Assembly (NCBI GenBank): GCA_964430225.1
Contig: CAYSFE010000001.1
Location: 11,820-75,819, forward strand
Source: an uncultured Candidatus Saccharibacteria bacterium
GTDB taxonomy: Bacteria; Patescibacteriota; Dojkabacteria; GCA-016699595; JBAXKR01
Direction: 5' to 3'
DNA: 64,000 nucleotides
Of this stretch, positions 2,451-54,526 are shown piece after piece (within the stretch, counting starts at the first letter, position 1; each line of letters starts with the position of its first letter). Position numbers and translations under genes: made by a program. Under the pieces are notes generated by a model that saw only the letters and a program-made list of their open reading frames with translations, ran no database searches and was not told the origin of the DNA.

Positions 2451-2526
2451 GGACACTTAGCTCAGCTGGTAGAGCATACCCTTGACGTGGGTAGGGTCAG
2501 AGGTTCGAACCCTCTAGTGTCCACCA
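2451..2526 (+). tRNA. tRNA-Val (anticodon GAC), CCA encoded
   Basis: Cloverleaf read by hand: acceptor GGACACT/AGTGTCC, D arm GCTC-AGCTGGTA-GAGC, anticodon stem TACCC/GGGTA with loop TTGACGT (anticodon GAC), T arm AGAGG-TTCGAAC-CCTCT, then ACCA. Confidence 0.85.
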
Positions 2527-2553
2527 AGTAAATATTAAAGTGAATCAAAAGAC

Positions 2554-3189
2554 ATGAAGATAACTAAATTTGGACATTGTTGTTTGTTAATAGAAGAGAA
2601 AGGAAAAAGAATTCTTACAGATCCTGGAAACTTCTCTAACTTACAAGACGATGTAAAGAATATTGATATTATTCTCATCACCCATGAACACCCTGATCAT
2701 ATCCATATAGAATCATTACAAAAGATACTAGAAAATAGTCCTAAAGCACTAATAGTTACAAACACAGCTACCTCCAAACTTTTAGTTCCCTTAAATATTA
2801 CTTTTGAAATCTTAGAAGATGGAAGTGAGAAAGAATTTTTAGGCATACAAATATCAGCACATGGAAAACTTCATGAAGAAGTATATTCTACAATTCCTAG
2901 AGTACAAAACACCGGTTTCTATATTTCAAATCGACTCTTTTACCCAGGAGATTCATTTACTATTCCAGGTTTTAATGTAGACATCTTAGCTCTTCCAGTA
3001 GCAGGTCCATGGGTAAAACTATCTGATTCAATTACATATGCTCTTAAAGTAAAACCAAGAATTAGTTTTCCAGTTCATGATGGAATGCTAATATCTGGTG
3101 GATCAGCACATGCATTACCAAATAAAATATTAAGTGAGAATGGAATAGAATTTAAAGTACTAGAGATTGGAAAAGAATATGAGTTTTAA
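2554..3189 (+). CDS. MBL-fold metal-dependent hydrolase
   Basis: 'ILITHEHPDHI' (HxHxDH metallo-beta-lactamase motif), 211 aa, downstream His/Asp ligands. Confidence 0.7.
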   Translation: MKITKFGHCCLLIEEKGKRILTDPGNFSNLQDDVKNIDIILITHEHPDHIHIESLQKILENSPKALIVTNTATSKLLVPLNITFEILEDGSEKEFLGIQISAHGKLHEEVYSTIPRVQNTGFYISNRLFYPGDSFTIPGFNVDILALPVAGPWVKLSDSITYALKVKPRISFPVHDGMLISGGSAHALPNKILSENGIEFKVLEIGKEYEF

Positions 3190-5551: not shown

Positions 5552-6181
5552 ATGTTTACTAACTCAGGAAGAAGCTTTGGAGGAAGATCAGGAGGATATA
5601 ATCCTAATTTTAAGAGACCTTTTAATTCTAGTTCACGACCACCATTCTTTAAAACAAGACAGCCTTACGTTAAGGTAGAAAATACTTATGGATTTAATAG
5701 AAATGAATTCATTAAAGCTACTGAGGTTAATGTCATAGACCCTAATGGGGTTAACCTTGGTTTAATGCCTACTGAAGTGGCTATTCAGAGAGCTCGTGAT
5801 GAGTTTGATCTAGATTTAGTTGAAGTAGCTCCTAATGCTAAACCCCCTGTATGTAAGATTACAGATTGGTCTAAGTTTAGATATGAGCAAAGCAAAAAAC
5901 ATAACCAAACATCTAAATCTATCGATATGAAGGGAATGTGGTTTTCTCCAGTTATTGGAGAAGGGGATTTAAACCATAAAGTGGAGAGAATATTAGAGTT
6001 TGTAAGTAAGAAACATCCAGTTAAAGTAGAGGTAAGATTCAAAGGTAGAATGAAGAGAGATCAGGTAATTATCACTATGAATAAGGTGATGGAGCTTCTT
6101 AAGGATCAAGTAAAAGTAGAAGCTTCACCTAAGTTTGAAGGAAGATCATATTCAACCATAGTTTACCCTATTAAAAAGTAG
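5552..6181 (+). CDS. infC: translation initiation factor IF-3 with ~45-aa Arg/Gly/Pro-rich N-terminal extension (true start uncertain)
   Basis: Conserved IF3 N- and C-domains ('LDLVEVAPNAKPPVCKITDWSKF', 'KVEVRFKGRMKRD'). Position after thrS matches the conserved operon order. Confidence 0.8.
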   Translation: MFTNSGRSFGGRSGGYNPNFKRPFNSSSRPPFFKTRQPYVKVENTYGFNRNEFIKATEVNVIDPNGVNLGLMPTEVAIQRARDEFDLDLVEVAPNAKPPVCKITDWSKFRYEQSKKHNQTSKSIDMKGMWFSPVIGEGDLNHKVERILEFVSKKHPVKVEVRFKGRMKRDQVIITMNKVMELLKDQVKVEASPKFEGRSYSTIVYPIKK

Positions 6182-6219
6182 TTGTTTAAGTTCATGTAGC
6201 TTTGATATAATCATCTCCT

Positions 6220-6420
6220 ATGAAACATAAGACCCACAAGGGACTAGCAAAAAGAATAAAGAAAATTGGTTCTAAAAAGAACGAGAAACTTGTTCACTAT
6301 CCACAAGGGGATTCACATCACTTAAGATCAAAGAAAAGTGCTAAAAGAAAGAACAGAATGAATACAATGAGTGTTATGGGTGGTAAGGTTCAAATCAAAT
6401 TAGTTAAAAGTTTAATATAA
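6220..6420 (+). CDS. rpmI: 50S ribosomal protein L35 (bL35)
   Basis: 66-aa, very basic protein between infC and rplT, as in the conserved infC-rpmI-rplT operon. Confidence 0.7.
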   Translation: MKHKTHKGLAKRIKKIGSKKNEKLVHYPQGDSHHLRSKKSAKRKNRMNTMSVMGGKVQIKLVKSLI

Positions 6421-6424
6421 TAAA

Positions 6425-6772
6425 ATGAGAGTAAAACGAGGAGTCACAGCACACGCTAAACATAAGAAGTTACTAAAACGAAATAAAGGATATACCTTAT
6501 CTTACTCAGGACTTGTAAAGAGAGCTAAAGAAGCAGCTTTACATTCAGGTGAATATTCTAAGAAACATAGAAGAGCAAGAACAGGACAATTCAGAAATGT
6601 ATGGATCACTAGAATCGCAGCAGGACTAATGGAATACGATATGAGATATTCCGACTTTATTAATCTCCTAAATAAGGCTAGTATTAAACTTAACAGGAAA
6701 GTAATGGCAGACTTAGCTTTGGATCATGCTAACGCCTTTAAAACTCTTGTTGAGACAGTAAAAACTAAGTAA
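6425..6772 (+). CDS. rplT: 50S ribosomal protein L20 (bL20)
   Basis: 'MRVKRGVTAHAKHKKLLK...RRARTGQFRNVWITRIAAG' matches bL20. Confidence 0.9.
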   Translation: MRVKRGVTAHAKHKKLLKRNKGYTLSYSGLVKRAKEAALHSGEYSKKHRRARTGQFRNVWITRIAAGLMEYDMRYSDFINLLNKASIKLNRKVMADLALDHANAFKTLVETVKTK

Positions 6773-6807
6773 ACTGAGTAAAGCTTTAAAGTTTAATAGC
6801 CTTAAAA

Positions 6808-7818
6808 ATGAATTACCAAACAGATATAGATGATATTTTATCAAGTCTTAAGACTTCTTTAGAAGCTTCTTCCGATATTGCTTCAATTAAGCTAGAATAC
6901 CTTGGGAGAAAAGGTAAGATAAACTCCTTAATGAGTAAGATTAAAGAAGTACCTGAAACTGAAAGAAAATCATTTGGTGAGAAAGTAAATGAAACAAAAT
7001 TAAAAGTTGAAGAATTAATCCTAAAAGCAGAAGAAGAAGGAAACAAGAAAAAGATAGAAGAAGAGAACAATACTTGGAGTGATGTAAGCGTAGTAATTCG
7101 TAAAGAGATGGGATCACTTCATCCAATTACCCAAACTAAATGGCTCATTGAAGATATATTCCAAAGAATGGGATTTGTAGTAGAGTATCCATTTGAAATA
7201 GATAGTACAGATAACAACTTCACATTCGTAAATATGCCACCATCTCACCCAGCACGTAGTAGTTGGGATACTTTTTTTACTGATGCTGGAGATGTACCAA
7301 TAGTACATACTTCATCTATGCAAAATAGGATATTAAAAGGAAGTAAACCACCAATATATGCAGTTGTACCTGGTAGATGTTTTAGAAATGAATCTACAGA
7401 CTCAAGGCATGAACATACCTTCACTCAGTTTGAAGGAATAGTCGTAGATAAAGGAATTAGATTTACAGATATGATTGGTGTTCTTAAAACTTTCTTTTCA
7501 GAATACTTTGAAAGAGATGTAGAAGTCATGGTAACACCAGATATGTTTCCATTTGTCGAACCTGGTGGAATGATATCCGTAAGATGGGAAGGACAATCAG
7601 AAGCAATTAAGAAAATAACTAAAGGTACAGGATGGTTAGAAATTATGGGGTGTGGAATGATCCATCCTAACGTTCTTTCTATGGGTAACATAGATCCAGA
7701 TGTATATTCAGGATTTGCTTTTGGAGGAGGAATAGAAAGACTACTATTAATAAAATATGGGATTGAGGATATCAGACTATTCGAGAAAGGAGATCTTAAG
7801 TTCTTACGTCAATTTTAA
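6808..7818 (+). CDS. pheS: phenylalanyl-tRNA synthetase alpha subunit
   Basis: Class II core 'FRNESTDSRHEHTFTQFEG', 'GWLEIMGCGMIHPNV', 'FAFGGGIERL'. Confidence 0.9.
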   Translation: MNYQTDIDDILSSLKTSLEASSDIASIKLEYLGRKGKINSLMSKIKEVPETERKSFGEKVNETKLKVEELILKAEEEGNKKKIEEENNTWSDVSVVIRKEMGSLHPITQTKWLIEDIFQRMGFVVEYPFEIDSTDNNFTFVNMPPSHPARSSWDTFFTDAGDVPIVHTSSMQNRILKGSKPPIYAVVPGRCFRNESTDSRHEHTFTQFEGIVVDKGIRFTDMIGVLKTFFSEYFERDVEVMVTPDMFPFVEPGGMISVRWEGQSEAIKKITKGTGWLEIMGCGMIHPNVLSMGNIDPDVYSGFAFGGGIERLLLIKYGIEDIRLFEKGDLKFLRQF

Positions 7819-41549: not shown

Positions 41550-42437
41550 ATGACTGATACTCCCGAGTTTAATTTAAAACCCAAAACAGTATTTGAAAAA
41601 ATCAGATCCAGATGGATAACTATTGACTCTATGGCAGGAGTTGGACTAGACCCTGTTCCTGAAAGAATTCCTGAAGAAATTTGGCAACAAGTCGGGAGCA
41701 AACATAATTATGGTGATGCATTTTCTTTATTTAACCAAATGATTATAGAAGCAACTGCACCTCATGCTATTGACTATAAAGTCAATTCTAATTTCTATCA
41801 AGGAGCACAAGGAAGAAAAGCATTACAAGAAACCTTTGATTACCTGAAAAGAAATCATCCAGATATAGTTCGTGTATGTGACGGAAAATTCGCTGATGTT
41901 GGAAATACTGCAGAAGTTATTGCTGAAGAAGTATTTGGTAATTTAGATGCTGATGCTGTTTTACTTAATCCATATTTGGGATTTGATGCTATTAAACCTT
42001 TTTTAAAATATAAAGGTAAGGCAATAATTCTATGCATTAATACTTCTAACCAATCGGCTAGTGACATACAAAACCTAAGATTAGATTCAGGTGTCCCTCT
42101 TTGGAGACATATATTGACTATTTCAATGACTGAATGGAATCAATATGAAAATATTATTCCTGTATTAAGTGCAACACACCCTGATAACCTTGTTGGTATT
42201 AGAGGAGTAATTGGACAAGCCCCAATACTTTTAGCAGGAGTGGGTAATCAGGGAGGGGATTTGTCACAAAGTATTCCACATTGTTTAGATGATAATGGTT
42301 ACGGTATGATGATAAGTTCATCCAGAGGTATACTATACCCAGAACGATTTGAAGGTGAAGGCTTTTTAAGTGCTTCAAAAAGGGCAGTGATTGAATTGAA
42401 AGATTTAATAAATGAGGCTAAAAGAAATTTATTTTAA
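41550..42437 (+). CDS. pyrF: orotidine 5'-phosphate decarboxylase, type 2 (or ODCase-suprafamily enzyme)
   Basis: 'MAGVGLDP' N-terminal block; catalytic 'CDGKFADVGNT' (DxKxxD); 'LNPYLGFDAIKPFL'; 'ILCINTSNQSASD'; 'SSSRGI'. Confidence 0.55.
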   Translation: MTDTPEFNLKPKTVFEKIRSRWITIDSMAGVGLDPVPERIPEEIWQQVGSKHNYGDAFSLFNQMIIEATAPHAIDYKVNSNFYQGAQGRKALQETFDYLKRNHPDIVRVCDGKFADVGNTAEVIAEEVFGNLDADAVLLNPYLGFDAIKPFLKYKGKAIILCINTSNQSASDIQNLRLDSGVPLWRHILTISMTEWNQYENIIPVLSATHPDNLVGIRGVIGQAPILLAGVGNQGGDLSQSIPHCLDDNGYGMMISSSRGILYPERFEGEGFLSASKRAVIELKDLINEAKRNLF

Positions 42438-43095
42438 TATTTTTATAAACATGAATCTAACTGAATTATCCGGAGTAAATTTTGAAGATATTGCCAGAGT
42501 ACATAATCAAGTAGATCAGCTTAGGACTTTAAGAAGAAATAAATTATTTGTTTTATTATTAGGTCCATCTGGTGTCGGTAAAACTACAATAATAAAAGCT
42601 TTAAATGATCAAACAAATGGAAAGTATCCATATATATCGCCTTATATAACAAGAGATTTAAGACCAGGAGAAACTGAAAAGACTGCAATAAGTGAGACTG
42701 AATTTGACAAACTAGAACAAGCTGGAGAATTTGTAATTGTTAATGCTTTATATGGAGTAAGGTATGGAACTCCATTAAAGACTATCACAAACTGCTTAGC
42801 ATCAGGAAGAGTTCCTATATTGGACTTTCCACTCGAAAAAGTAGCCAAATTACGTAGGAAAGAATTTGACCTGTTAAACATATATGTTTTTCCTCCTAAC
42901 ATAGCTGAATGGCGGTCAAGACTTGAAAAAGAAAATAGAAATAATTCAAATAGATTTGAACAGGGTGTTGACGAACTTGGGATGCTTTCTCAATTAACTA
43001 AACCCCATCCCGATATTCATTATTCAGTAGTTAGTAGAAGTGGAGATATACCTAAAATTGCTAATATAATCAATACCATAATAAGTTCTATATAA
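42412..43095 (+). CDS. guanylate kinase-like nucleoside monophosphate kinase (start may be Met at 42451)
   Basis: P-loop 'LLLGPSGVGKTT'; 'SPYITRDLRPGE' (S-TTR-PRPGE-like); 'YGVRYGT'; 'ILDF'; 'YVFPPN'; LID 'WRSRLEKENR'. Confidence 0.55.
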   Translation: MRLKEIYFNIFINMNLTELSGVNFEDIARVHNQVDQLRTLRRNKLFVLLLGPSGVGKTTIIKALNDQTNGKYPYISPYITRDLRPGETEKTAISETEFDKLEQAGEFVIVNALYGVRYGTPLKTITNCLASGRVPILDFPLEKVAKLRRKEFDLLNIYVFPPNIAEWRSRLEKENRNNSNRFEQGVDELGMLSQLTKPHPDIHYSVVSRSGDIPKIANIINTIISSI

Positions 43096-43136: not shown

Positions 43137-43508
43137 TTACCTTAACTTCTGTTTGTGAAAAGTTCCCCTATTTAATCTAAATGCCAATCTTCTTTCTGGA
43201 GCATATACCATTGGTACACCTATAAGTGATTTACAACTTTCACATACTAAATTTGGCATGTCTTTAGTCCCCACAATTTTAGGGTCACTACTTAAAGAGG
43301 CTAGTTTAGGAGGCCATAAAATTCTATCTAAATAAGACCTTAGTAGTGCACCAATTCCATCTTTTTGATATATCATTAATCTTGTGTTACATCTTGCACA
43401 TGATATATCTAATAACTCAGAATTACCGCCTCTTGCTTTTCTATATCCATCTTTCTTTATGTGAAAATCAGATGGTTTTGGACCTTTAATGTTTCCTTCT
43501 AGTTCCAT
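43137..43508 (-). CDS. hypothetical protein with CxxC...CxxC zinc-ribbon
   Basis: 'CARCNT' and 'CESCKS' pairs. Confidence 0.4.
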   Translation of the reverse strand: MELEGNIKGPKPSDFHIKKDGYRKARGGNSELLDISCARCNTRLMIYQKDGIGALLRSYLDRILWPPKLASLSSDPKIVGTKDMPNLVCESCKSLIGVPMVYAPERRLAFRLNRGTFHKQKLR

Positions 43509-43580: not shown

Positions 43581-44108
43581 TTAGTATAGTTCAGGATTAA
43601 CGAAGGGAATTAGGGCAAGTATTGTAGCTAAGGTAAAAGAATCTTCCCTTGTTACTAGTCCATGTGTAAGTATTCCTATTGCTCCATTTCTTACTTTAGA
43701 GTTCTTCCTGCCGAATACAATATCATCTGCAACTCCCAGTTCTTTTCCACTTTTTATTAGCATAGTTACAGCTTGAGGCAATGGGGGAGAGGGAGACCTT
43801 CCTTTACCAATCAATTTTTTACCTTTAACACTAACCCATCCAAAAGCATATAGGGAACCATCTAGTTCTTCAAGTCCGCCCTCTAATCCTACATAGTAAT
43901 CAGCACCAGGGTATTTCTTATATGCATTAATAGCTCTATTAAGAGATCCTTTAATAGTTTGTTCATTACCCATTGGTTGAGAGGGTACACCTGATGGTAC
44001 ATCTACACCCTCTATCTTAAACTTTTCATTTTTAAATACTTTCTTAAAAGCTTTTAAGGTAGCTTTTATCTTTACTGGATTTCTTGATCCTACTATTATC
44101 TTTTTCAT
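43581..44108 (-). CDS. inosine/xanthosine triphosphatase (YjjX family non-canonical NTP pyrophosphatase)
   Basis: Near-collinear with E. coli YjjX blocks: 'GSRNPVKIKA', 'VPSGVPSQPMGNEQT', 'YVGLEGG', 'ATILALIPF'. Confidence 0.65.
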   Translation of the reverse strand: MKKIIVGSRNPVKIKATLKAFKKVFKNEKFKIEGVDVPSGVPSQPMGNEQTIKGSLNRAINAYKKYPGADYYVGLEGGLEELDGSLYAFGWVSVKGKKLIGKGRSPSPPLPQAVTMLIKSGKELGVADDIVFGRKNSKVRNGAIGILTHGLVTREDSFTLATILALIPFVNPELY

Positions 44109-44172
44109 ATGGTTTATTTAATATGGGGTTATAGTAACAGAGTTTATAAAGTTACTCAAAATATCTGAAACT

Positions 44173-44613
44173 TTATAAAGTTAGAGGTATTTTATCTAAA
44201 TCCCCATTTATGACAATAGGACTCATAACTATTATCTCATCCTTATATGCCATCTCTGGAATAGGGTAGAGAAGGTATATAGGTTTTCTTAATACATATG
44301 CAAAACCTATTTCTAAAAATGTATTTCCTCCAATATATCCTTCAATATTCTTTTTAGTATAGTTAGCTATTAGAACACAATCTGATTCTTTAATCTTTTC
44401 AAAGTATTTCCTAATAGCGTCATATTTCATTTTAGCTTTATATCCCTCTCCTTTGTCTACACTTTCTAAGTGTTCTTTCATTGTTCGCTCTCCACTTAGT
44501 ATCCTCATAGCTCCATCTGGTATTTCTACAACATGACCTTTCTCAACAAGCTTATCAGATAGCTCTTTCATCTCTTTAGTGAATTGTATTGAACCACAGA
44601 TAGTAATTTTCAT
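44173..44613 (-). CDS. nucleoside 2-deoxyribosyltransferase-like / dNMP N-glycosidase (Rcl-like) fold protein
   Basis: 'MKITICGS' start; 'SDCVLIANY...GGNTFLEIGFAYVLRKPIYLL' matches the D..GT.FE.G.A...KP motif of PF05014-type proteins. Confidence 0.45.
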   Translation of the reverse strand: MKITICGSIQFTKEMKELSDKLVEKGHVVEIPDGAMRILSGERTMKEHLESVDKGEGYKAKMKYDAIRKYFEKIKESDCVLIANYTKKNIEGYIGGNTFLEIGFAYVLRKPIYLLYPIPEMAYKDEIIVMSPIVINGDLDKIPLTL

Positions 44614-44646
44614 ATTAGTTGATTTAAAACTTAGTTATTCTATTTC

Positions 44647-45201
44647 CTATTGTTTACTCTTTCTTATAGCTTTGATAATCCTGTAAACCAAGTAAATTAC
44701 TAAAGTAATTACAGTAATATCAAAAGCAAGATAGAATAATGGGAAAGGCGTATTTTTAGCACATACAGCAGCACAGCCATAACCTGACTGATTAACTATT
44801 CCAAATGGATTTAAATAGCTATGACGATCGCAAGGGCTTCCACAATCAAGTTTTAAATTCCACAAAACAAACGTTATTGCTGACTCTATTATTAGGATAG
44901 GAACTACTATAGATATTTTAAGTTTAGGACTAAGTTTATTTTTAACAAACTTAATCAATTTAAAAAGTAAATATCCTACTATAGTGAGAATTAATATATC
45001 AAACATAAGATAAAAGTTTTGATGAGGTACATTTTCAAAAACATTAAGGCATAGTTCCTTTGTTGGATGCCATCCAAATGGGTTTAAGAAAGTATATGGT
45101 TCACACATATCCACATACTGTGTTTTCATGAAGAATAGTATGATAGTAATAATAGATTCTACCAAAAGTAGCAATAGTATTGGAGTAAACTTTATTTTCA
45201 T
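44647..45201 (-). CDS. membrane protein with duplicated Cys-containing module
   Basis: Two similar halves, each TM - 'NPFG...C...F(Y)LMFDI' - TM. Confidence 0.4.
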   Translation of the reverse strand: MKIKFTPILLLLLVESIITIILFFMKTQYVDMCEPYTFLNPFGWHPTKELCLNVFENVPHQNFYLMFDILILTIVGYLLFKLIKFVKNKLSPKLKISIVVPILIIESAITFVLWNLKLDCGSPCDRHSYLNPFGIVNQSGYGCAAVCAKNTPFPLFYLAFDITVITLVIYLVYRIIKAIRKSKQ

Positions 45202-45308
45202 TATTAATGTATTAATAACTATTTTTTAAAATCATTACCCAAAGATATTGTACAATAGATATTAGAAAAATAGTTAAGGACGTATATATTATCTATTACT
45301 AATACCTA

Positions 45309-45719
45309 ATGATACAAATGCCTAAAGCATTAGCTCCATATGCTAAACACTTAGAAGAAGAGGGATATAAAGTCACTACTACTGAAGAAAGTATAATCAC
45401 GGAAAAAGATGGTAACCAAGTAATATTTGTAGCTTCTGAAGTACCTGCTTATATAATAGCAATGGTAAAGTATGATTTAAATCAAAGTGCATATCTTGCA
45501 AATAAGTTAGAAGCTTTAGAGATAGTAAACTCAATAAATACTTATGATATACCAAGTTGTTACATTGGAGAGAACAGTGACCAGCCTTACTTAGCAATAA
45601 CTTGGCCTTACTTTGGAGAGTATAATAAAGATATATTTCATACTTTCATGTTACAAGTACAATTTGACGAAGTAATAATACTAAAAGAAATGCATGAGAG
45701 TTTAAAGAAGTTCATGTAA
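45309..45719 (+). CDS. hypothetical protein
   Basis: 136-aa ORF. Confidence 0.4.
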   Translation: MIQMPKALAPYAKHLEEEGYKVTTTEESIITEKDGNQVIFVASEVPAYIIAMVKYDLNQSAYLANKLEALEIVNSINTYDIPSCYIGENSDQPYLAITWPYFGEYNKDIFHTFMLQVQFDEVIILKEMHESLKKFM

Positions 45720-45740
45720 AGACAATTAAGTGTCTTTAAA

Positions 45741-46058
45741 CTATAGTTGGTCATATTTCTTGTTACTTCCTTTTGCCTTAGATACAGGATATTTCTTAAT
45801 ATTCTTAGCTAGTTTCTTAAGTATTATATCTTCAATATCTACATTAAGACTTTCAGCCATTAGAACAGAGTATATTATTATATCTGCCAATTCTTCATTT
45901 ACTTCTCCTTGCATAGCTACATCATCCCATTGATAACATTCTAATAGTTCTCCAGCTTCTATAGATAAAGACTTAGCTAGATTCTCTGGAGTATGAAACT
46001 TCTTCCATTCTCTTTCATCTCTAAACTTTAATATTTTCTTAATTAAGCTAGGATTCAT
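45741..46058 (-). CDS. MazG-like all-alpha nucleotide pyrophosphohydrolase
   Basis: 'FRDEREWKKFHTPENLAKSLSIEAGELLE...EELADIIIY...KKLAKNIKKYP', the characteristic small MazG-family layout. Confidence 0.55.
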   Translation of the reverse strand: MNPSLIKKILKFRDEREWKKFHTPENLAKSLSIEAGELLECYQWDDVAMQGEVNEELADIIIYSVLMAESLNVDIEDIILKKLAKNIKKYPVSKAKGSNKKYDQL

Positions 46059-46132
46059 AGATGAGAAATAATAAATAATTACTTAAACACAGGTATTATA
46101 TTGCTATTAAAGGGAATTAACAATAACTGCCT

Positions 46133-46159
46133 CAACTTGTAAGAAAACCTTACAAGTTG
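46133..46159. repeat. perfect 11-bp inverted repeat hairpin CAACTTGTAAG-aaaac-CTTACAAGTTG
   Basis: Read directly; lies between the MazG-like and RhuM genes. Confidence 0.6.
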
Positions 46160-46172
46160 ATATATCTTACTA

Positions 46173-46238
46173 AATGTATACAAAGTACACTAGTTTGTAT
46201 CTTTTGATTAAAGCAATGTATACAAACTTTCTATTTTA
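46173..46238. repeat. ~65-bp structured repeat unit, copy 1 (hairpin + conserved 25-mer overlapping the RhuM stop codon)
   Basis: AATGTATACAAAGTAC...TTTGTAT hairpin, then CAATGTATACAAACTTTCTATTTTA (46214-46238). 23/25 identity to copy 2. Confidence 0.55.
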
Positions 46239-47279
46239 TAGAACTGTTTTGTTATTAGGATCAATTAGTTTTTTAACTTCTTTGTCAAAGTCAGAAATAT
46301 AATTTTTATCCTGTATAGGTTTATATTTCTCATACTCACTTTCAGCAAATGACTTGGCCACTTCTGATGAAACTTTACCAGCATTTTTCAAGATATCTTT
46401 ATTATTAAATCTCAAAAATACATCAAGTTTTGTAGCCCAATCTTTCATAGTCATTGGGGTACCGTTTTCTGCCTGGTCTTCTGCATAATCCAAATACATA
46501 GTAACAATTCGGTTAAGTGCCTTGATCTCTTTTTCATTGAGATAGTTTTTTGCTATTACTACATCTGTCTTGAGTATTTTTCCCTTTGGAGCCTTTTTCC
46601 ATGTTGTTAAGCCCATATATTCTTTTTCATGAGAGACTCGATCTACAATCAGCTCAGCTGCTGTATTTTGATGAATAGCGTAATGCATCTTATTTTGAAC
46701 TGTAGCGAAGAAATCTTTAGTTGTTTGTGAATTAAGGTCATAATCTAAAGCAGTTACATAAATATCCGTTATTTTTTGATAAAAGTTTCTTTCACTTTCA
46801 CGAATATCTCTAATTTCAAGAATTAAATCTTCAAAATATTGCTTACTTAAGAATGAACCGTTTTTTAATCTTTCACTATCAAGTACATATCCACGAGTTG
46901 AGAAATCTTTCAATATTCTATTTGCCCATCGACGAAATTCTATTGCTCTTTCTGAGTTAACTTTAAATCCTATTGCTATGATTGCCTCTAAACTATAATG
47001 CTCAACATCTCTTTCCACTTTGCGTGAACCTTCAGTTTGAACTATTCGAAAATTTCGAATAGTTGAGTTCTCAACTAATTCCTTACTCATGAATATCTCT
47101 TTTATATGGTAGTTAATGGTGTTAATTTCAACACTAAAAAGTTTTGCAATTAATTTTTGTGTCAGCCAAATATTCCCATCCTCAACCCTTACTTCAATAC
47201 TATCTTGGCCAGATTGTAGGGTAAATATTAAAAATTCTGAAGTACTATTTCTTATCATTAAGTTTTTACTATTTGGCAT
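46236..47279 (-). CDS. RhuM-family protein (virulence/defence-island associated)
   Basis: N-terminal 'IEVRVEDGNIWLTQKLIAKLFSVEINTINYHIKEIF', typical of the RhuM/Fic-associated family. 347 aa. Confidence 0.55.
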   Translation of the reverse strand: MPNSKNLMIRNSTSEFLIFTLQSGQDSIEVRVEDGNIWLTQKLIAKLFSVEINTINYHIKEIFMSKELVENSTIRNFRIVQTEGSRKVERDVEHYSLEAIIAIGFKVNSERAIEFRRWANRILKDFSTRGYVLDSERLKNGSFLSKQYFEDLILEIRDIRESERNFYQKITDIYVTALDYDLNSQTTKDFFATVQNKMHYAIHQNTAAELIVDRVSHEKEYMGLTTWKKAPKGKILKTDVVIAKNYLNEKEIKALNRIVTMYLDYAEDQAENGTPMTMKDWATKLDVFLRFNNKDILKNAGKVSSEVAKSFAESEYEKYKPIQDKNYISDFDKEVKKLIDPNNKTVL

Positions 47280-47378
47280 GGTGTTTTATAGGTATTATAA
47301 GAATTATGATTATCCTAAAGTCGCTATTGGTATTTTACCTTAAAAGATCGTTTTAATAAAACTGAAGCTATTTACTAG

Positions 47379-47445
47379 GAATGTACTCAAAGTACCCTTG
47401 TTTGAGTACATTCATTCAGTCAATGTACACAAACTTTCCATTTTA
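47379..47445. repeat. ~65-bp structured repeat unit, copy 2 (13-bp inverted repeat GAATGTACTCAAA/TTTGAGTACATTC + conserved 25-mer overlapping the nuclease stop codon)
   Basis: CAATGTACACAAACTTTCCATTTTA at 47421-47445; same architecture as copy 1. Confidence 0.55.
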
Positions 47446-48171
47446 ATATTGTTTTGCCATCTTTTCTTGATACTCACACCATTCACACTCACTTGAATAT
47501 TCTGGTACCTTATCACTATTTAAACAACTTTTAATGTTTAAAAGGGTGGGTTCTATCCAGTTATCATTCCCTACATATGGTATTACTTTGATTTTAAACT
47601 CTAGCTTAGCATCAAATGCCTCTTTATCTTTTATTCCATTGCAATATACAAAGTATCCAGTATTAGATACTTTGAATTCATTTCTTCTTAGCAACCACTG
47701 ATATACCTCCATCTGTCTTTTATATCCCATCTGCCATTCTGAATCTAAGTTTACCTCTGTATCCTTGGCTGTTGATTTATAGTCGACGACATGGAGTTCT
47801 CCAATAGGATTTACCCATACATCATCTATAGCCCCATAAATATATAGGTTGGTTTTAGGATGAAGATACTGTACTCCAGTAAAGTTAGCTCTCCATATAT
47901 CTATATCCTTATGACTATATGGAATAGCATCTATTCCATATTTTTTCATTAAAGGATGCGTTTTTCCCTTTACCCTATGAGCATCAAATTCAAGTTTTAA
48001 TAAATGATCTACTGCAGAGTTAAGAGAGTATGGGGGAGAGGAGGGTCTCTTAATACCTAATTTCTTATCTAAATAGAAACATCTGGGACATTTAACATAT
48101 AGCTCTATACCAGTCCTACTTATCTTATATGAATCTTCACTATCTGTTTTATATACTCCTTTATATGGCAT
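47443..48171 (-). CDS. PD-(D/E)xK nuclease, Cas4/RecB-like with four Cys (CxxC...CxxC)
   Basis: 'GAIDD...ELHVVDYKST' (D...D/E-x-K); N-terminal 'CPRC' and C-terminal 'CEWC'. Confidence 0.5.
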   Translation of the reverse strand: MPYKGVYKTDSEDSYKISRTGIELYVKCPRCFYLDKKLGIKRPSSPPYSLNSAVDHLLKLEFDAHRVKGKTHPLMKKYGIDAIPYSHKDIDIWRANFTGVQYLHPKTNLYIYGAIDDVWVNPIGELHVVDYKSTAKDTEVNLDSEWQMGYKRQMEVYQWLLRRNEFKVSNTGYFVYCNGIKDKEAFDAKLEFKIKVIPYVGNDNWIEPTLLNIKSCLNSDKVPEYSSECEWCEYQEKMAKQY

Positions 48172-48270
48172 ATGTAGGTGATTATATATCTAGGGGTAAT
48201 AGGAAGCTACTATATATTTGTCATTAATATTAGCTACACTTTTCACTCTTTAATCTTAAATTCTTTCGCC

Positions 48271-48299
48271 TTGACAATCGGTTTCTTTCCGGTTAAACT
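48271..48299 (+). promoter_or_regulatory. candidate promoter of the LexA-methyltransferase gene (TTGACA-17 nt-TAAACT) with CGGTT direct repeats in spacer
   Basis: Consensus -35; weak -10; tCGGTTtctttcCGGTTaa inside the spacer could be an operator. Confidence 0.3.
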
Positions 48300-48332
48300 C
48301 CCGTAATAAATATACATTAACAATCAATTAAT

Positions 48333-49901
48333 ATGAATGGACTAAGCTTAAAACAAAAAAGAGTTTATGATTATATAATTAAATTTATAAATGAAAATGG
48401 AATAGCTCCAACTATCGAAGAAATCCGAAAAGCCTTAAAATTAATGGCAACATCTACAGTTCATGAACATATTAAAACTTTAGTAGATAAGGGATATCTT
48501 AAAAAAGAGACCTCCTATCACAGAGGGTTAATTCCAATAAAAGCAATTAAGAAAGTATTTGAGGTTCCAATAATCGGGAAGATTGCAGCTGGCAAACCCA
48601 TTGAGGTAAATGAGGTTTTTGAAGATACAATTTCAATTGTAAACGAAAATATTTCCAACATAAAAGATTTTTATGCTTTAAAAGTCGAGGGTAACAGTAT
48701 GATTGACGAAGGAATTTTTGATGGAGACATTGTGATAGTCAAGAAACAATCAGTAGCCGAAAATGGCCAGACTGTAGTTGCTATTGTTGATGATAATTGT
48801 GCAACTCTTAAAAAGATATATAAAGAGAAATCTAGATTTAGGCTTGAGCCAAGAAATCAATCTATGCTTCCCTTTTTTAGAAAAGAGGTTGAAGTAAGAG
48901 GTGTTGTTATTCAAATCATTAGTAATACCTTTAGTAATGCATTAAATAAACAAGAAAAACAACAAAATTTTAGAACAATTGATTTATTTGCAGGTATTGG
49001 TGGCATACGTATTGGATTTGAAAAAGCAGGATTTAATACAGTTTTCGCAAATGATTTTGAGCCAAATTGTAAAATTACTTATGATCTTAACTTCAAGAAG
49101 ACAAAACTAGTGGTTGAAGATATAAAAAAAATTGGTATTAAAGATTTACCAAACTTTGATTTTGTTTTAGCTGGCTTTCCATGTCAGGCATTTTCAATCG
49201 CTGGTTACAGACAGGGTTTTAATGATGAGAAGGGAAGAGGAAACTTATTCTTTGATATTGTTAAAATTTTAGAAGCACGTAAACCCGAAGGATTTTTACT
49301 AGAGAATGTTAAGAATCTAAAAAGTCATGATAATGGTAAAACTTTTAAGATTATAGAAAAATCGTTAACAGACCTAGGCTATTATGTCAAAACAAAGGTA
49401 CTAAACTCAATGGAATATGGTAATATCCCACAGAATCGCGAACGAATATATATTGTAGGATTCAAAAATAAGAATTATGCAGAAAAATTTACATTCCCAT
49501 TGCCACAAAAGCTTTCAACAAAAGTAGAAGACTTATTAGAAAAGAATGTTCTACAAAAGTATTATTACAATAACAAGCCACTTTACGAGAAGCTTAAAAA
49601 TCATGTAAAAGTAGGAAAGGTTTATCAGTGGAGAAGACAATATGTAAGGGAAAACAAGAAAGGTGTTTGTCCAACATTGACTGCAAACATGGGAACAGGA
49701 GGGCATAATGTTCCAATTATAAAAGATAGTAAGGGAATTAGAAAATTAACTCCAATCGAGTGCGCAAGAATTCAAGGATTTCCGCAAGATTTTGTACTAC
49801 CAAATCTTGCAGACTCCATACTTTATAAACAAATTGGAAATTCAGTCAGTGTACCAGTCGTAGAGTCAGTAGCAAAACAAATGATGAAAGCATTAGAATA
49901 A
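48333..49901 (+). CDS. fusion protein: LexA-like repressor (HTH + S24 autopeptidase) fused to DNA (cytosine-5) methyltransferase
   Basis: Residues 1-~200 are collinear with LexA ('IAPTIEEIRKAL...HIKTLVDKGYL', 'IGKIAAGKPIE' Ala-Gly site, 'VEGNSMID' Ser, 'IVIVKK' Lys). C-terminal C5-MTase motifs: I 'DLFAGIGGIRIGF', IV 'GFPCQAFSIAG', VI 'ENVKNL', 'RIQGFPQDF', 'GNSVSVPV'. Confidence 0.8.
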   Translation: MNGLSLKQKRVYDYIIKFINENGIAPTIEEIRKALKLMATSTVHEHIKTLVDKGYLKKETSYHRGLIPIKAIKKVFEVPIIGKIAAGKPIEVNEVFEDTISIVNENISNIKDFYALKVEGNSMIDEGIFDGDIVIVKKQSVAENGQTVVAIVDDNCATLKKIYKEKSRFRLEPRNQSMLPFFRKEVEVRGVVIQIISNTFSNALNKQEKQQNFRTIDLFAGIGGIRIGFEKAGFNTVFANDFEPNCKITYDLNFKKTKLVVEDIKKIGIKDLPNFDFVLAGFPCQAFSIAGYRQGFNDEKGRGNLFFDIVKILEARKPEGFLLENVKNLKSHDNGKTFKIIEKSLTDLGYYVKTKVLNSMEYGNIPQNRERIYIVGFKNKNYAEKFTFPLPQKLSTKVEDLLEKNVLQKYYYNNKPLYEKLKNHVKVGKVYQWRRQYVRENKKGVCPTLTANMGTGGHNVPIIKDSKGIRKLTPIECARIQGFPQDFVLPNLADSILYKQIGNSVSVPVVESVAKQMMKALE

Positions 49902-49902
49902 A

Positions 49903-50958
49903 TTAAATTTTTTCGGAAATTTCTTTAAATGCCACTTCTGGTTTAGTTAAAAGACCTTTTGATATTAGGGTAGTAATATTATTTTTAGCAATCCAAATGT
50001 TATTTCTATCTAATTTAGGATTTCTTCCTATTGCATTTAAATCAAAACTATAATAATTATCTTTTTCAAGTTTGTAATTCCCAACTATTTTATTTGTTAC
50101 AAACGAATCAGTTACACAATAAATATACCTTCTTATACTTTTTTTGTTCTTTTTTTCAAAAAGTTTAATTTCTCCAGAATAATAAAACCTACCCATAAAT
50201 TCAGGAGAAGGAACCTTTTTATTCATTTCATATTGCTCAAGGTATTCTTTTGAAATTCCAATAATTTCAGGAATTTTGCCTTTTTTTATAGAAGATATTG
50301 TCGCTTTTCCAGCAATGTTAAAAACTTTTGTTTCATACATTAAAGAGTCCTTTCTATAAATTTTCCCATATTTACTTAACTCACTACCCGAAATTACATA
50401 ATCAACTACGACTTGAATATTTTGCATTTCGGTAAATCTTTCAAATATTTCCGTTTTAATTTCTCCTTTAAGGTATACCCCAAGTAAATCCTTCTGTTTA
50501 CTGTCCCCTATGTTTGTATTTGCGATATGAGCACCAATAATAAAAATGTTTTCCAAATTGGAATAACTGGGGATACTTTTTATTGTTTCAAACTGTTCTA
50601 GAGTAAGTCCACACCATCTATCAGCAACTGAGACGTTTTTAATTTCAATAAAACAATTCGGATTTCTTTTCTTATTATTATGGAAAATATATGGAATGTC
50701 AGGCTCATTCAAAATCTCACTATTACTTTTAATATCAAGATCAAGTTCGAATGATTTATTGGGATTGAAATTTGCGAGTATTTTAGAAACTCCAATTTCA
50801 ACAAGCTTACCAAATAAAAAACTATCAATAACACCCCCTAATCCCCTAGAGGAACCTGAGGTTCTTGAAGACTTAGATTTCTTAGGATCAAGATGATATT
50901 TAACAGCGAAGCCGAAAGCAACTTCAAAATCTTTTTTTGTTAAATTATAACTTAACAT
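49903..50958 (-). CDS. putative type II restriction endonuclease (PD-x16-ExK)
   Basis: 'NEPDIPYIFHNNKKRNPNCFIEIKNVS' contains PD...E-I-K. Convergent with the methyltransferase and abutting it (1-nt gap). Confidence 0.45.
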   Translation of the reverse strand: MLSYNLTKKDFEVAFGFAVKYHLDPKKSKSSRTSGSSRGLGGVIDSFLFGKLVEIGVSKILANFNPNKSFELDLDIKSNSEILNEPDIPYIFHNNKKRNPNCFIEIKNVSVADRWCGLTLEQFETIKSIPSYSNLENIFIIGAHIANTNIGDSKQKDLLGVYLKGEIKTEIFERFTEMQNIQVVVDYVISGSELSKYGKIYRKDSLMYETKVFNIAGKATISSIKKGKIPEIIGISKEYLEQYEMNKKVPSPEFMGRFYYSGEIKLFEKKNKKSIRRYIYCVTDSFVTNKIVGNYKLEKDNYYSFDLNAIGRNPKLDRNNIWIAKNNITTLISKGLLTKPEVAFKEISEKI

Positions 50959-50969
50959 TTTTTATTTCT

Positions 50970-51059
50970 TGGCGGAGAGAGAGGGATTCGAACCCCCGGT
51001 TGACTTGCGCCAACAACAGTTTTCAAGACTGTCGCCTTAAACCACTCGGCCATCTCTCC
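50970..51059 (-). tRNA. tRNA-Ser (anticodon UGA), CCA encoded
   Basis: The reverse complement reads GGAGAGATGGCCGAGTGGTTTAAGGCG-ACAGT-CTTGAAA-ACTGT-[long variable arm TGTTGGCGCAAGTCAACC]-GGGGGTTCGAATCCCTC-TCTCTCC-G-CCA. Confidence 0.8.
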
Positions 51060-51103
51060 ATATGGGTATAGATATTGTACCAAAGTAGGAGATTATCCGT
51101 AAA

Positions 51104-51970
51104 TTATTTATTCCTTCTAGTTATGAGCATTTGAGCTAATTTTGTCCTAGTAGGTTTATCAAATCCTCTTATCATCTCTTTTTCCTCAGCTATTGCATCC
51201 ATATATTTAGGGTTAAGTATTTGCATTACTCTATGTTTAAATCTTAAAGGTAATTCTAATAACGTAGCTTGGACCACTAGTAACATAGACATTTGTCTTT
51301 CAAGTTGTAAGGCTAAACCTGGAACCGGAGATACCCAATCATATTTATTCCTAGCAAATATTGTCCTAAATTCAACTTCTGTTATCTCCTGTTCTGGAGA
51401 TACAGGTAATTTATCTACAACATAACATGTACTTGGGTAAGTAAGGCCGGACCTATTAACTTTAACACCTCTCTCACTATCCCTTCTACGTGCTATTCCT
51501 AAGATTCTAATGATTCTAACCTGAAATTCTCTATCTCCATTAACAATGTTTGATAGATAAATTCTCTGTCTTACTTTTGCATTACCCTTAAAAGAAGCTA
51601 GAACATCAAATGCATAATATGGAAATTGATATGTGGAAGTGGGGTAGTAAAAAGTATTAAAACCATCTTGTTCAAAATCAATATAATTCTGAATAATTGT
51701 TCTGAAATTAGGAATTAGTGCTTCACATCCGCCAACTTGATTTGGATGATCTAGTACTATATGCCAAAAGGCTTCACTTTGTTCAGGTATACTAAAAGGT
51801 ATGACACTTTGAGAATATGGACTTATTAATTGAAGTCCATCTTTTTTATCTTGATTAAGTTTAGAAGCTAATTGTAAACAACCTAAAAAGGAATCATATC
51901 TTCTTAGTTGATCCTCAGAAACATACCTTGGTTTTAGACCAAATTCTTGCCTAACTTCATTTGAAACCAT
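51104..51970 (-). CDS. hypothetical protein
   Basis: 288-aa ORF. Confidence 0.4.
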   Translation of the reverse strand: MVSNEVRQEFGLKPRYVSEDQLRRYDSFLGCLQLASKLNQDKKDGLQLISPYSQSVIPFSIPEQSEAFWHIVLDHPNQVGGCEALIPNFRTIIQNYIDFEQDGFNTFYYPTSTYQFPYYAFDVLASFKGNAKVRQRIYLSNIVNGDREFQVRIIRILGIARRRDSERGVKVNRSGLTYPSTCYVVDKLPVSPEQEITEVEFRTIFARNKYDWVSPVPGLALQLERQMSMLLVVQATLLELPLRFKHRVMQILNPKYMDAIAEEKEMIRGFDKPTRTKLAQMLITRRNK

Positions 51971-51992: not shown

Positions 51993-53210
51993 CTATTCCG
52001 GTAAAGAAGAATAGAGGGAAAACTCCCCATTCTGGTATATCACTTTTTTAGTTCCATTTCTAAGTATTGCTGTAACTGTCCTATCTTTTCTTGTGACTAT
52101 ATCTGTATGTACATGACTTTCATTAAAGCCATATTTCTTTGCTGTTTTAGTAGTATAGTCTTTAGTTCCTTCAGAGAAACATTCAGGGAAAGATTGTCCT
52201 AAAGCTAAGTGCATATTCCCATATTTTCCCCCTGTATTTTCATCAAAGAGTGTTTCAGCCATAAACCTATGAATCCTACTTAGTCTTTTATCTGTAAGAC
52301 TAAACTCTCCAAGTCTATTTGCTCCTTTCTCAGATATCATTTGTTTTAATACATTCTCTCCCTTCTTTGCACTAGCTTTAACTACCTTTCCATCTTTAAA
52401 CTCTAAAGTTATCCCATCTACAAGATTGTCATATATATAGAGAGGTTCTGAGAAAGAGATATATCCCTCAGCTTCTCTGCAATCTGGTGAAGTAAACACT
52501 TCAAAAGAGGGGATATTCCTTCCTCCTCCTCCTGCCCATATTCTTTTCGCTCCTAACCCTATACTTAAATCGACTCCATCTCCCTTAACAATTAAGGTCT
52601 TAATATCTAGTATGTTGAGTTTAGATTTTGTGTCTTCTACTTGTTTAGTTACTTCTCGCCATTTACTTACAGGATCATTCTCATCTAGAAAACATGCATG
52701 TACTATCTCCTCCCAATACTCAGCTAAAGACATATTGGCTTCTTTAGCCATTGCTTTAGTTGGGAATAGAGAGATATTCCAAGTAAGCTTTCCTTTGTTT
52801 TCTTTTTGTTGCATCAGACTTCTAAAGAATCCTAAATTCTTTTGTCTTAGCATTATGAGTTTAGGATCTATTCCCTCTAGTTGTTTAGGATCTGATTCAG
52901 ATAAGATTCTAACCACATGATCACACTCAGATATTAAAGATCTTACATATTTCTTTGGAGTATATGACAATTGTTCAGGAGATCCTATATCAAAGAAATC
53001 TCTTAATATACCATCAGGGATATATTCAAGTATCATATGTCCACCTGATTCTAGGATAGACTTTTGAAGATAGGGAAGAAACTCACGAGCTGCTTCTGGA
53101 ATACGTACATATACCTTATCTCCCTTCTTTATACCTTTATAGTCATTAAGAGCAAACTTAATGATCACATCAGCATATCTCTTTAATATTGTTTCATCTA
53201 TTTTAGTCAT
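51993..53210 (-). CDS. aminopeptidase, M29 (AmpS/PepS)-like, tentative
   Basis: Length ~405 aa; N-terminal 'LKRYADVIIKFALNDYKGIKKGDKVYV', like M29 aminopeptidases. Confidence 0.45.
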   Translation of the reverse strand: MTKIDETILKRYADVIIKFALNDYKGIKKGDKVYVRIPEAAREFLPYLQKSILESGGHMILEYIPDGILRDFFDIGSPEQLSYTPKKYVRSLISECDHVVRILSESDPKQLEGIDPKLIMLRQKNLGFFRSLMQQKENKGKLTWNISLFPTKAMAKEANMSLAEYWEEIVHACFLDENDPVSKWREVTKQVEDTKSKLNILDIKTLIVKGDGVDLSIGLGAKRIWAGGGGRNIPSFEVFTSPDCREAEGYISFSEPLYIYDNLVDGITLEFKDGKVVKASAKKGENVLKQMISEKGANRLGEFSLTDKRLSRIHRFMAETLFDENTGGKYGNMHLALGQSFPECFSEGTKDYTTKTAKKYGFNESHVHTDIVTRKDRTVTAILRNGTKKVIYQNGEFSLYSSLPE

Positions 53211-53218: not shown

Positions 53219-54526
53219 TTATTTTCTAAGTAGCCATTCATATAGAGGGACTACATGTATGTTTATTCCATCTTTAGATATTGTTTCCTTTTCACTTTCA
53301 GTAACTAGTAGACATGTAGGAGATTTCTTTCCTTCTTTTACTTCTTTCTTTTCTTTTATAGCAGATACTACAGCTCTTAACTCTCTTTCTTTAGTATCTT
53401 CTGACTCAAAGTGTTGAGATACTTGAATAAAAGAATTTTCTTTAGGTAGATAGAAGTCTACTTCATAGTCTTCAGAAGTTTTATAGTAGTATATTTCTTG
53501 ATTCCTTCTTCTTAAGTCAACATACACAACATTTTCTATTAATTTACCTTTGTTCTTAGAAAAACTAAAACCAACAGATTCAATAAGACCAGTGTCTATT
53601 CCATATACCTTCTTTGCAGCTATTTGCTGTTCCTTTACAGAGAAAGCATACTTATTTACTAGAAAGAATAGCCAGCTAGTTTCTAAATAGTCTATATAGC
53701 TTATTACAGTATTAACACTCCCTAATTGAAGAAGTTCTTTAAGTTTATTATATGATATTAGAGAAGATATATTACTTACTAAGTAAAAAGATAGTTCTTT
53801 TAAACTCTTTACATTAGTCAAGTTATATCTTGTAGCTATATCCCTATATAGTACATCGTCATAAAGTGTTTTATGTATTTCTAGTTCTGGATATTTTAGA
53901 GAGTCTGGTATTCCTCCTGATGAAATATATTCTTTAGTTAAATTCACAAATTGTCCCTTCTGTTTTGTAGTCAATACTTTCATATCAGGAATCTCAAAGT
54001 TCTTAAAGGTTAGAAACTCTCTAAACGAGAAAGGGAATAGTTCAACACGAACAGAACGGCCTGTTAATCTTGTTCCTAGTTCCTGGCTGAGTAGAGATGC
54101 ATTTGATCCCGTTATTACAAACTTATATCCTTCATCGTGTAATCTTCTAACAAACCTTTCCCACTCAGGGACATTTTGAATCTCATCAAATAAGAATGTT
54201 TTCTTTTCACCAAATAGACTTATTAGTGTTTCGTGTAGTAAATCAAAGTCATTTACTTGAAAGTTTATCAACCTCTCATCTTCAAAGTTCACAAAATAGT
54301 ATCCATCTTTTAGGTATTTATCAGCTATTTGAGCTAGAAGAGTAGACTTACCTACACGTCTTAAACCAGTAATAACCATTATTTGGGTAGAAGATAAAAT
54401 GTCACCTAATTCAGCAAGTATTTCTCTTTTTATACCTAAATCACGGGCCATAAACGAATCATGCTGTTCCTTTAAAGCACTAGTAAGTATCTCTTTATTT
54501 AGTATTTTTAGTGGTTCTGCCGTCAT
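53219..54526 (-). CDS. AAA-family ATPase (AAA_14 + DUF4143-type)
   Basis: Walker A 'GLRRVGKSTLL'; Walker B 'LFDEIQ'. Family size ~435 aa. Confidence 0.6.
   Translation of the reverse strand: MTAEPLKILNKEILTSALKEQHDSFMARDLGIKREILAELGDILSSTQIMVITGLRRVGKSTLLAQIADKYLKDGYYFVNFEDERLINFQVNDFDLLHETLISLFGEKKTFLFDEIQNVPEWERFVRRLHDEGYKFVITGSNASLLSQELGTRLTGRSVRVELFPFSFREFLTFKNFEIPDMKVLTTKQKGQFVNLTKEYISSGGIPDSLKYPELEIHKTLYDDVLYRDIATRYNLTNVKSLKELSFYLVSNISSLISYNKLKELLQLGSVNTVISYIDYLETSWLFFLVNKYAFSVKEQQIAAKKVYGIDTGLIESVGFSFSKNKGKLIENVVYVDLRRRNQEIYYYKTSEDYEVDFYLPKENSFIQVSQHFESEDTKERELRAVVSAIKEKKEVKEGKKSPTCLLVTESEKETISKDGINIHVVPLYEWLLRK

Follow-up and report, generated by a model that had tools for sequence, protein, structure and literature searches.

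A probable strain-variable type II restriction-modification cassette with a LexA-methyltransferase fusion beside tRNA-Ser in an uncultured Candidatus Saccharibacteria bacterium

In contig CAYSFE010000001.1 of an uncultured Candidatus Saccharibacteria bacterium, a block of defence-type genes (45741-51059) lies next to a tRNA-Ser(UGA) gene, and this locus raises the question of which part of the block is accessory, what system it encodes and how that system is controlled. A stretch of 64,000 nucleotides (nt) of this contig was analysed (hereafter the window, to which all unlabelled coordinates refer), with open reading frames (ORFs) annotated by Pfam and PADLOC and tRNA genes by ARAGORN. The genes named in the initial annotation were found where it had placed them, and since tRNA-Ser is on the minus strand the block is positioned 3' of it. 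The segment 48221-50969 is likely to be a strain-variable type II restriction-modification (R-M) cassette in a defence hotspot, containing a methyltransferase that is predicted to be autorepressed through a fused LexA and released by DNA damage. The parts of this reading differ in firmness: the R-M cassette and the hotspot are proposed with high confidence, and damage feedback as the purpose of the LexA fusion is put forward tentatively.

The variable slot beside tRNA-Ser

The features that define the slot are as follows (lengths of proteins in amino acids, aa).

48221-50969, no strand: strain-variable cargo, the R-M cassette, filling the slot from the tRNA-Ser 3' end to the promoter of the Cas4-like gene
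50970-51059, minus: tRNA-Ser(UGA), anticodon tga (ARAGORN), the 3' end of which is the sharp left edge of the variable slot
51074-51103, minus: promoter-like site TTTACG-18-TACAAT, with TG, upstream of tRNA-Ser (consensus scan and sequence)
49903-50958, minus: 351-aa candidate type II restriction endonuclease, no Pfam match, convergent with the methyltransferase gene at a gap of 1 nt
48333-49901, plus: 522-aa LexA-C5 DNA methyltransferase fusion (Pfam; PF00145 E 7e-93)
47443-48171, minus: 242-aa Cas4-like PD-(D/E)xK nuclease (PDDEXK_1 E 1e-12; PADLOC Cas4 E 9e-10), the conserved right flank

Relatives of the locus were found by a metagenome scan with the neighbouring 405-aa peptidase (51993-53210), presumably an M29-type aminopeptidase. 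Two of them, L109 and L091, have flanks 91-94% identical to the window and an entirely different restriction cargo. After tRNA-Ser(tga), L109 carries an EcoRI-type adenine methylase, a GmrSD_N/HNH protein, a Hypoth_Ymh protein and an 827-aa GmrSD-like protein, followed by the Cas4-like gene, and after the tRNA of L091 there are an 83-aa ORF and a type I system (HsdM, a 501-aa unknown protein, HsdS and HsdR), again followed by the Cas4-like gene. In L109, L091 and a third relative, L108, the similarity to the window breaks off precisely at the 3' end of the tRNA (50969), with four different sequences following that end in the window and the three relatives. Similarity resumes at 48220 in L109 and at 48192 in L091, 18-42 nt upstream of the start codon of the Cas4-like gene, which is kept at about 91-95% nucleotide identity past the different cargo of both relatives, indicating that this gene belongs to the conserved far flank and is not cargo.

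Exact-protein look-ups for the window led to nothing but short contigs of the strain itself, the break points of which are informative. Logan contig L001 spans about 48186-50994, as estimated from its length and gene offsets, and contig L117 begins 44 nt before the Cas4-like gene. In two samples, assembled independently, contigs end at or close to the cargo junctions, which fits polymorphism within the population. The slot behaves as a defence hotspot with swappable restriction cargo, bounded by the tRNA-Ser 3' end and the Cas4-like gene, and its observed variable part is 48221-50969 only. The cargo would be exchanged by homologous recombination through the conserved flanks.

In the initial annotation, the whole block 45741-51059 was regarded as one decayed accessory island, integrated site-specifically at the tRNA-Ser 3' end, with the integrase since lost. 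The accessory character was confirmed for 48221-50969, where the cargo next to the tRNA differs in L109 and L091, and the claim of a single island was not, since the Cas4-like gene is retained beyond different cargo, so that the variable unit ends near 48220, and the 5' side of the tRNA varies too. The contiguity of the defence-type genes, the accessory DNA adjoining the tRNA 3' end, a modest enrichment of R-M modules of the fusion family beside tRNA 3' ends (see below) and the 66-nt direct repeat bracketing the RhuM gene, which suggests separate insertion events, speak for such an island, but the usual traces of integration are missing. No integrase was matched among the Pfam-scanned ORFs of the window block, as had been noted initially, or of the cargo that replaces the cassette in L109 and L091; this search left out three ORFs in 42-54.5 kb (227 aa at 42412-43095, with a recorded similarity to Guanylate_kin; 123 aa at 43137-43508, with no match; and the 405-aa peptidase). 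A repeat of the tRNA 3' end (an att site), a search for which near 45.7 kb had been suggested, was found neither in 42-53 kb nor in the junction sequences, and the GC content is flat (0.29-0.32 over 45-51 kb, with a window value of about 0.32), giving no island signal. Integration of the whole block as one island is therefore considered unlikely.

Variation was also observed on the 5' side of the tRNA. The 288-aa gene without a Pfam match that lies between the 405-aa peptidase and tRNA-Ser (51104-51970) is absent in L091, where the peptidase stop is followed by 9 nt and then the tRNA; it has only 77% nucleotide identity in L109, and in L108, L090 and L107 a different sequence of about 2 kb appears to replace it. 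The 435-aa AAA_14 and DUF4143 ATPase gene at 53219-54526 (PADLOC candidate PDC-S01, E 1.4e-107) is present in only some relatives, being found in L092 and missing in L090, L110, L111 and L112.

The LexA fusion and its nuclease partners

The 522-aa protein had initially been read as a plain methyltransferase; the C5 domain is indeed present, but a complete LexA is fused to its N-terminal side. The protein is divided as follows.

48333-48515, plus: LexA_DNA_bind, aa 1-61 (PF01726 E 8e-14)
48567-48911, plus: Peptidase_S24, aa 79-193 (PF00717 E 1.3e-25)
48588-48593, plus: codons of Ala86-Gly87, the predicted self-cleavage site (alignment to E. coli LexA)
48969-49886, plus: DNA_methylase domain, aa 213-518 (PF00145, profile positions 1-323 of 324)

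In a comparison with the Protein Data Bank, the alignment of aa 1-196 with LexA 3k2z (E 7e-29), and also with E. coli 1jhh, runs from end to end, and aa 209-517 match residues 8-318 of M.HhaI (E 1e-58), with the methyltransferase motifs DLFAGIGG, GFPCQ, ENV, QNRER and GNSVSVP all present. Residues A86-G87, S122 and K160 align with A84/G85, S119 and K156 of E. coli LexA. Of 120 C5 fusions, 118-120 retain the Ala-Gly, Ser and Lys, as do 46 of 46 other long representatives of the fusion. As judged from these residues, the LexA part is a complete and apparently cleavable repressor.

A frameshift or assembly artefact was rejected as the origin of the fusion, because the best 120 homologous clusters (71-76% identity, about 525 aa) all have the identical three-domain order. 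The fusion is conserved at 60-76% identity across many Patescibacteria groups, and at least 517 relatives were confirmed in a scan of one genome per species; among the relatives listed in that scan, the titles are mostly Patescibacteria groups, with a few from other phyla. Some homologues carry the NCBI name "transcriptional repressor LexA". Phage and IMG/VR searches returned solely methyltransferase-only or LexA-only relatives and gave no evidence of a phage-borne fusion. Among the closest 60 relatives of the LexA part, from 1.84 billion representatives searched, 38 are proteins of at least 350 aa with an N-terminal LexA, and the C-terminal parts of these long proteins were assigned by Pfam to C5, N6_N4, D12, N6_Mtase or Eco57I methyltransferases (five families). 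A split form was observed in locus L114, where the genes for a 222-aa LexA and for an N6_N4 methyltransferase share an overlap of 13 nt.

The 351-aa ORF is a predicted PD-(D/E)xK nuclease of a family without a Pfam model. Its catalytic motif is P86-D87-x17-E105-I-K107, which corrects the x16 spacing given initially, and E54, D87, E105 and K107 are invariant across 30 aligned homologues. It had also been described as lacking recognisable relatives; 66 were found in a set of 5.8 billion proteins, and none of the 67 family members, itself included, has a Pfam domain. Every source-named member is labelled Patescibacteria. The AlphaFold2 model is confident (pLDDT 90.8, pTM 0.87) and contains an N-terminal PD-(D/E)xK core and a C-terminal beta-rich domain without a strong match, the latter being taken as the putative DNA-recognition part. 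PADLOC gave nothing meaningful for this protein (a single HTH_VI match, E 0.0028). The gene starts 11 nt past tRNA-Ser and has no promoter of its own by sequence and consensus scan, so that it is probably co-transcribed from the tRNA promoter at 51074-51103, the only plausible one. In five other distinct and unrelated contexts, members of this nuclease family are likewise convergent with a LexA-methyltransferase.

Two variations on this arrangement were observed. In L006 (7784-7996), and also in L007 and L008, a 70-aa HTH_3 gene lies 4 nt upstream of a nuclease gene of the same family, and this version may have two regulators, a C-protein-like one for the nuclease and LexA for the methyltransferase. 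In L009, the most distant nuclease homologue examined (35% identity, 2033-3073) has no adjacent LexA fusion, and a 504-aa C5 methyltransferase without a LexA domain (5633-7147) lies 2.5 kb away.

The convergent pair had been flagged as a likely type II R-M system; the PF00145 match and the PD-(D/E)xK partner bear this out, and from the encoded domains it is very probably such a system. The wider family was surveyed in 80 genome loci of the fusion, fetched with flanks of 10 kb each. A convergent ORF was found from a few nt to about 40 nt past the fusion stop in 68 of the 80, and these partners belong to at least seven mutually unrelated families, three of which match nuclease models.

21 loci: about 187 aa, RE_Bsp6I (E 4.8e-13)
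14 loci: about 360 aa, no Pfam match
10 loci: about 279 aa, no Pfam match
8 loci, two of them not convergent: about 388 aa, RE_NgoFVII_C (E 1.7e-13)
8 loci: about 281 aa, no Pfam match
7 loci: about 150 aa, PDDEXK_5
3 genome loci and further metagenome loci: about 350 aa, the nuclease family of the window

A tRNA gene lies within 1 kb beyond the start of the nuclease gene in 9 of the 68 modules (8 of them on the same strand; about 3 expected from tRNA density) and within 1 kb on the methyltransferase side in none of the 68.

Whichever partner family is present, the target-recognition region of the methyltransferase (aa 385-475) is 76-79% identical to that of the window protein, being conserved as strongly as the catalytic motifs. 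In the pooled loci of four partner clusters no short palindrome is more depleted than GCNGC, and in two further clusters it ranks second, with observed/expected values of 0.45-0.72 and z down to -10.7; for the cluster with the window-type nuclease the pooled value is 0.60 (z -5.8), against 0.95 in control Patescibacteria loci without the fusion. Bsp6I cuts GCNGC. From the depletion in carrier loci and the association with Bsp6I-type nucleases, 5-methylcytosine methylation of GCNGC is predicted, with the nuclease partners sharing this one target.

Taken singly, R-M systems, autoregulating methyltransferases, LexA and defence hotspots are familiar. What appears to be new is a LexA, complete and apparently cleavable, joined to methyltransferases of five Pfam families, and the exchange of nuclease partners beside a conserved GCNGC methyltransferase. 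LexA-methyltransferase fusions were not described in the literature searched; a Patescibacteria LexA-regulon paper of 2017, outside the reach of that search, might cover part of this, such as the operator or the fusions.

Operator and proposed regulation

48271-48299, plus: promoter of the fusion gene (sequence and promoter scan), with -35 TTGACA at 48271-76, the 17-nt spacer ATCGGTTTCTTTCCGGT at 48277-93 and -10 TAAACT at 48294-99

Upstream of the fusion genes, a family operator was found with the conserved sequence TTTCGGTTTnTnTTCGGTTATAAT, that is TTCGGT-N5-TTCGGT, a direct repeat with an 11-nt register, which fills the 17-nt promoter spacer and abuts the -10 box. With a matrix built from 54 sites upstream of fusion genes, the 64-kb window gave a single match, at the fusion promoter (19.5 bits; runner-up 8.6), and in about 1.1 Mb of loci 57 of the 58 strong matches to the operator core were at the fusion's own promoter. 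It is thus likely that the fusion autoregulates through this predicted operator. In locus L115, a stand-alone 206-aa Patescibacteria LexA has TTTCGGTTTTG-TTTCGGTTTT upstream, the same operator type as the fusion, indicating an operator class common to the fusion and to ordinary Patescibacteria LexA. The operator of the split lexA in L114 is GCTCGGGT-TTT-GCTCGGGT plus TGTGGATAAC.

A separate 9-mer, TGTGGA(A/T)AA, which is a perfect match to the DnaA-box consensus, precedes the LexA operator by about 10-15 nt in 57 of 76 loci (L010-L089). Its occurrences at fusion promoters make up half of the 114 total occurrences in 1.15 Mb, and it is absent in the window. The split lexA of L114 has the 9-mer in its upstream region too, and the stand-alone lexA of L115 has it there in the form TGTGAATAA.

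In the scheme proposed here, operator binding, RecA-dependent cleavage, the physiological purpose and the nuclease specificity are predictions from sequence rather than observations. The LexA part would bind the TTCGG direct repeat in the 17-nt spacer of its own promoter and so keep methyltransferase synthesis at a set level. DNA breaks, for example from the cutting of under-methylated own DNA, would lead to RecA-single-stranded DNA filaments and S24 cleavage at Ala86-Gly87, by which the DNA-binding domain would be lost and the promoter derepressed. The S24-methyltransferase fragment, together with newly made protein, would then increase methylation and restore protection of the chromosome.

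Several points weigh against this scheme. The window operator is degenerate (ATCGG/TCCGG) and scores 15.7-19.5 bits, where the family median is 38, and its promoter is without the TGTGGATAA element, which 57 of the 76 other promoters have. A LexA dimer would not usually have a direct repeat as its operator. PMC7739468, by partly the same authors, lists the 2017 study of Sanchez-Osuna, Barbe and Erill (Environ Microbiol 19:3465) as one instance of LexA having evolved direct-repeat recognition. The continued activity of the cleaved S24-methyltransferase fragment is an assumption. As the stand-alone LexA of L115 has the same operator type, the fused LexA may cross-talk with the host SOS repressor, or may even be that repressor, and a regulon elsewhere in the genome is compatible with data from 10-kb flanks per locus. 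As to the target, GCNGC occurs 43 times in the window against 50.8 expected (0.85, not significant), a weak depletion that fits a recent arrival and gives no support to the predicted target for this copy.

The LexA part might instead be a borrowed DNA-binding and dimerisation module, comparable to the SsoII-type helix-turn-helix (HTH) or to C proteins, in which self-cleavage has no signalling role. N-terminal autorepressing domains are established for M.SsoII, M.EcoRII and M.MspI, the operator overlaps the promoter, and the small HTH_3 gene upstream of the nuclease gene in L006 would suit such a module; but all fusion lineages keep the Ala-Gly site and the Ser/Lys dyad almost without exception, which would not be expected if cleavage were irrelevant, and the passive module is accordingly judged improbable. 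The alternative with the slimmest chance is that the 522-aa protein is the true SOS master repressor with an orphan or epigenetic C5 methyltransferase, and the 351-aa protein a repair or other nuclease: homologues are named as LexA, the fusion is highly conserved (60-76% identity) over many Patescibacteria groups, its TTCGG direct-repeat operator class is common with stand-alone Patescibacteria LexA and no second LexA lies within the 64-kb window, but the slot holds other restriction systems in close relatives, so that the fusion is not core in the lineage, orthologous fusions have partners from recognised restriction-enzyme families, avoidance of GCNGC is confined to carrier loci, in 1.1 Mb the operator was found hardly anywhere but at the fusion's own promoter, and the fusion of LexA to five Pfam families of DNA methyltransferase points to a link with R-M.

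A damage-released methyltransferase in an R-M cassette thus remains the preferred reading. With more reserve than for the purpose of the fusion in this locus, LexA-methyltransferase fusions may be seen as a general class of R-M regulation in Patescibacteria, in which a LexA lineage dedicated to this role, joined repeatedly by fusion or translational coupling to five Pfam methyltransferase families, ties methylation capacity to RecA-sensed damage. Such control would be, for type II systems, the equivalent of restriction alleviation and would limit cuts in the host's DNA, with the conserved GCNGC methyltransferase as the anchor beside at least seven exchanged nuclease families.

Neighbouring genes and known systems

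The remaining features of the block lie beyond the Cas4-like gene.

46236-47279, minus: RhuM-family gene (PF13310 E 3e-108; PADLOC candidate PDC-S05 E 1.5e-150)
47380-47445, no strand: repeat D1 copy 2, 66 nt, with three GTTTGNRTACATT copies in alternating orientation
46173-46238, no strand: repeat D1 copy 1, 66 nt, 77% identical to copy 2
45741-46058, minus: MazG-like nucleoside triphosphate (NTP) pyrophosphohydrolase, 105 aa (PF12643 E 1.4e-19)

A PADLOC check, as suggested at the outset, matched the RhuM gene (PDC-S05) and Cas4, and gave no match for the MazG-like protein. The Cas4 profile matches of the 242-aa protein are weak (Pfam E 0.0024, PADLOC E 9e-10), there is no CRISPR-like array in 40-56 kb and there is no other cas gene nearby. 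In agreement with the initial description of a stand-alone Cas4/RecB-like nuclease without an array, the protein is better described as a stand-alone PDDEXK_1 nuclease (E 1e-12) than as a CRISPR-associated Cas4.

The RhuM gene is bracketed by the direct repeat D1, each copy of which contains three GTTTGNRTACATT motifs in alternating orientation, making alternative hairpins possible. The motif co-varies inside each copy (GTAC versus ATAC), and 5 of its 7 matches in the window lie within the D1 copies, where 0.99 would be expected. It could serve as an operator, a terminator or a cassette boundary. The D1 repeats were rejected as LexA boxes, as the operator matrix gives no match there.

To the left of the defence genes, small nucleotide-metabolism genes are clustered (43581-46058), including an NTPase_I-T gene (DUF84, E 6.6e-54), the MazG-like gene and a weakly matched nucleoside 2-deoxyribosyltransferase-like ORF (E 4.5e-05, under the Pfam cut-off). 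In addition, GGATCC is absent from the 64-kb window (10.9 expected under a maximal-order Markov model) and occurs once in the close relatives L090-L092 and L109-L111 (5.8 expected), which suggests a BamHI-type restriction system elsewhere in the lineage.

Patescibacteria (bacteria of the candidate phyla radiation, CPR) are reportedly largely devoid of CRISPR-Cas, and without it they would depend on restriction systems. A methyltransferase joined to a cleavable damage sensor suggests a simple feedback, in which breaks would lead to more methylation. Proteins named "transcriptional repressor LexA" by NCBI in these genomes are probably often R-M components, which affects reconstructions of SOS regulons. 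The partner survey suggests that one methyltransferase can hold its specificity through repeated replacement of the nuclease partner, and the 351-aa protein would be a new PD-(D/E)xK restriction-enzyme family with probable GCNGC specificity.

Among known systems, the type IIP systems for GCNGC/GCSGC (Bsp6I, NgoFVII) resemble the cassette in having an adjacent or convergent C5 methyltransferase and a small nuclease; orthologous fusions pair with RE_Bsp6I and RE_NgoFVII_C nucleases, and carrier loci avoid GCNGC. In contrast, the window nuclease is in neither family and has no Pfam model, and the window methyltransferase has about 205 extra N-terminal residues, which form the complete LexA.

In M.SsoII, M.EcoRII and M.MspI, an N-terminal HTH autorepresses the methyltransferase gene. 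These enzymes and the C-protein systems share with the window a DNA-binding domain fused to or beside the methyltransferase and an operator in the R-M promoter region, suggesting negative autoregulation of the methyltransferase here as well. They differ in that the window protein has a full LexA with S24, so that repression is predicted to be releasable by DNA damage, and in that the operator of the window family is a direct repeat inside the promoter spacer.

Compared with canonical LexA of E. coli and Thermotoga maritima, the winged-helix domain, the Ala-Gly site, the Ser/Lys dyad, the full-length alignment and a probable own-promoter operator are alike, whereas the window LexA is fused to an enzyme, its operator is almost only at its own promoter in the available sequence, and its gene is on strain-variable cargo.

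The slot resembles the immigration control region of E. coli, with conserved flanks, type I, type II and type IV-like systems alternating in close relatives, and no integrase; its flanks are different, being the tRNA 3' end, with the nuclease gene 11 nt on, and the Cas4-like gene. In type I restriction alleviation, in which ClpXP degrades HsdR after DNA damage, there is likewise a post-damage shift away from cutting the cell's own DNA. The route proposed for the window is different, namely derepression of a type II methyltransferase by LexA cleavage, and the likeness would be a functional and hypothetical one.

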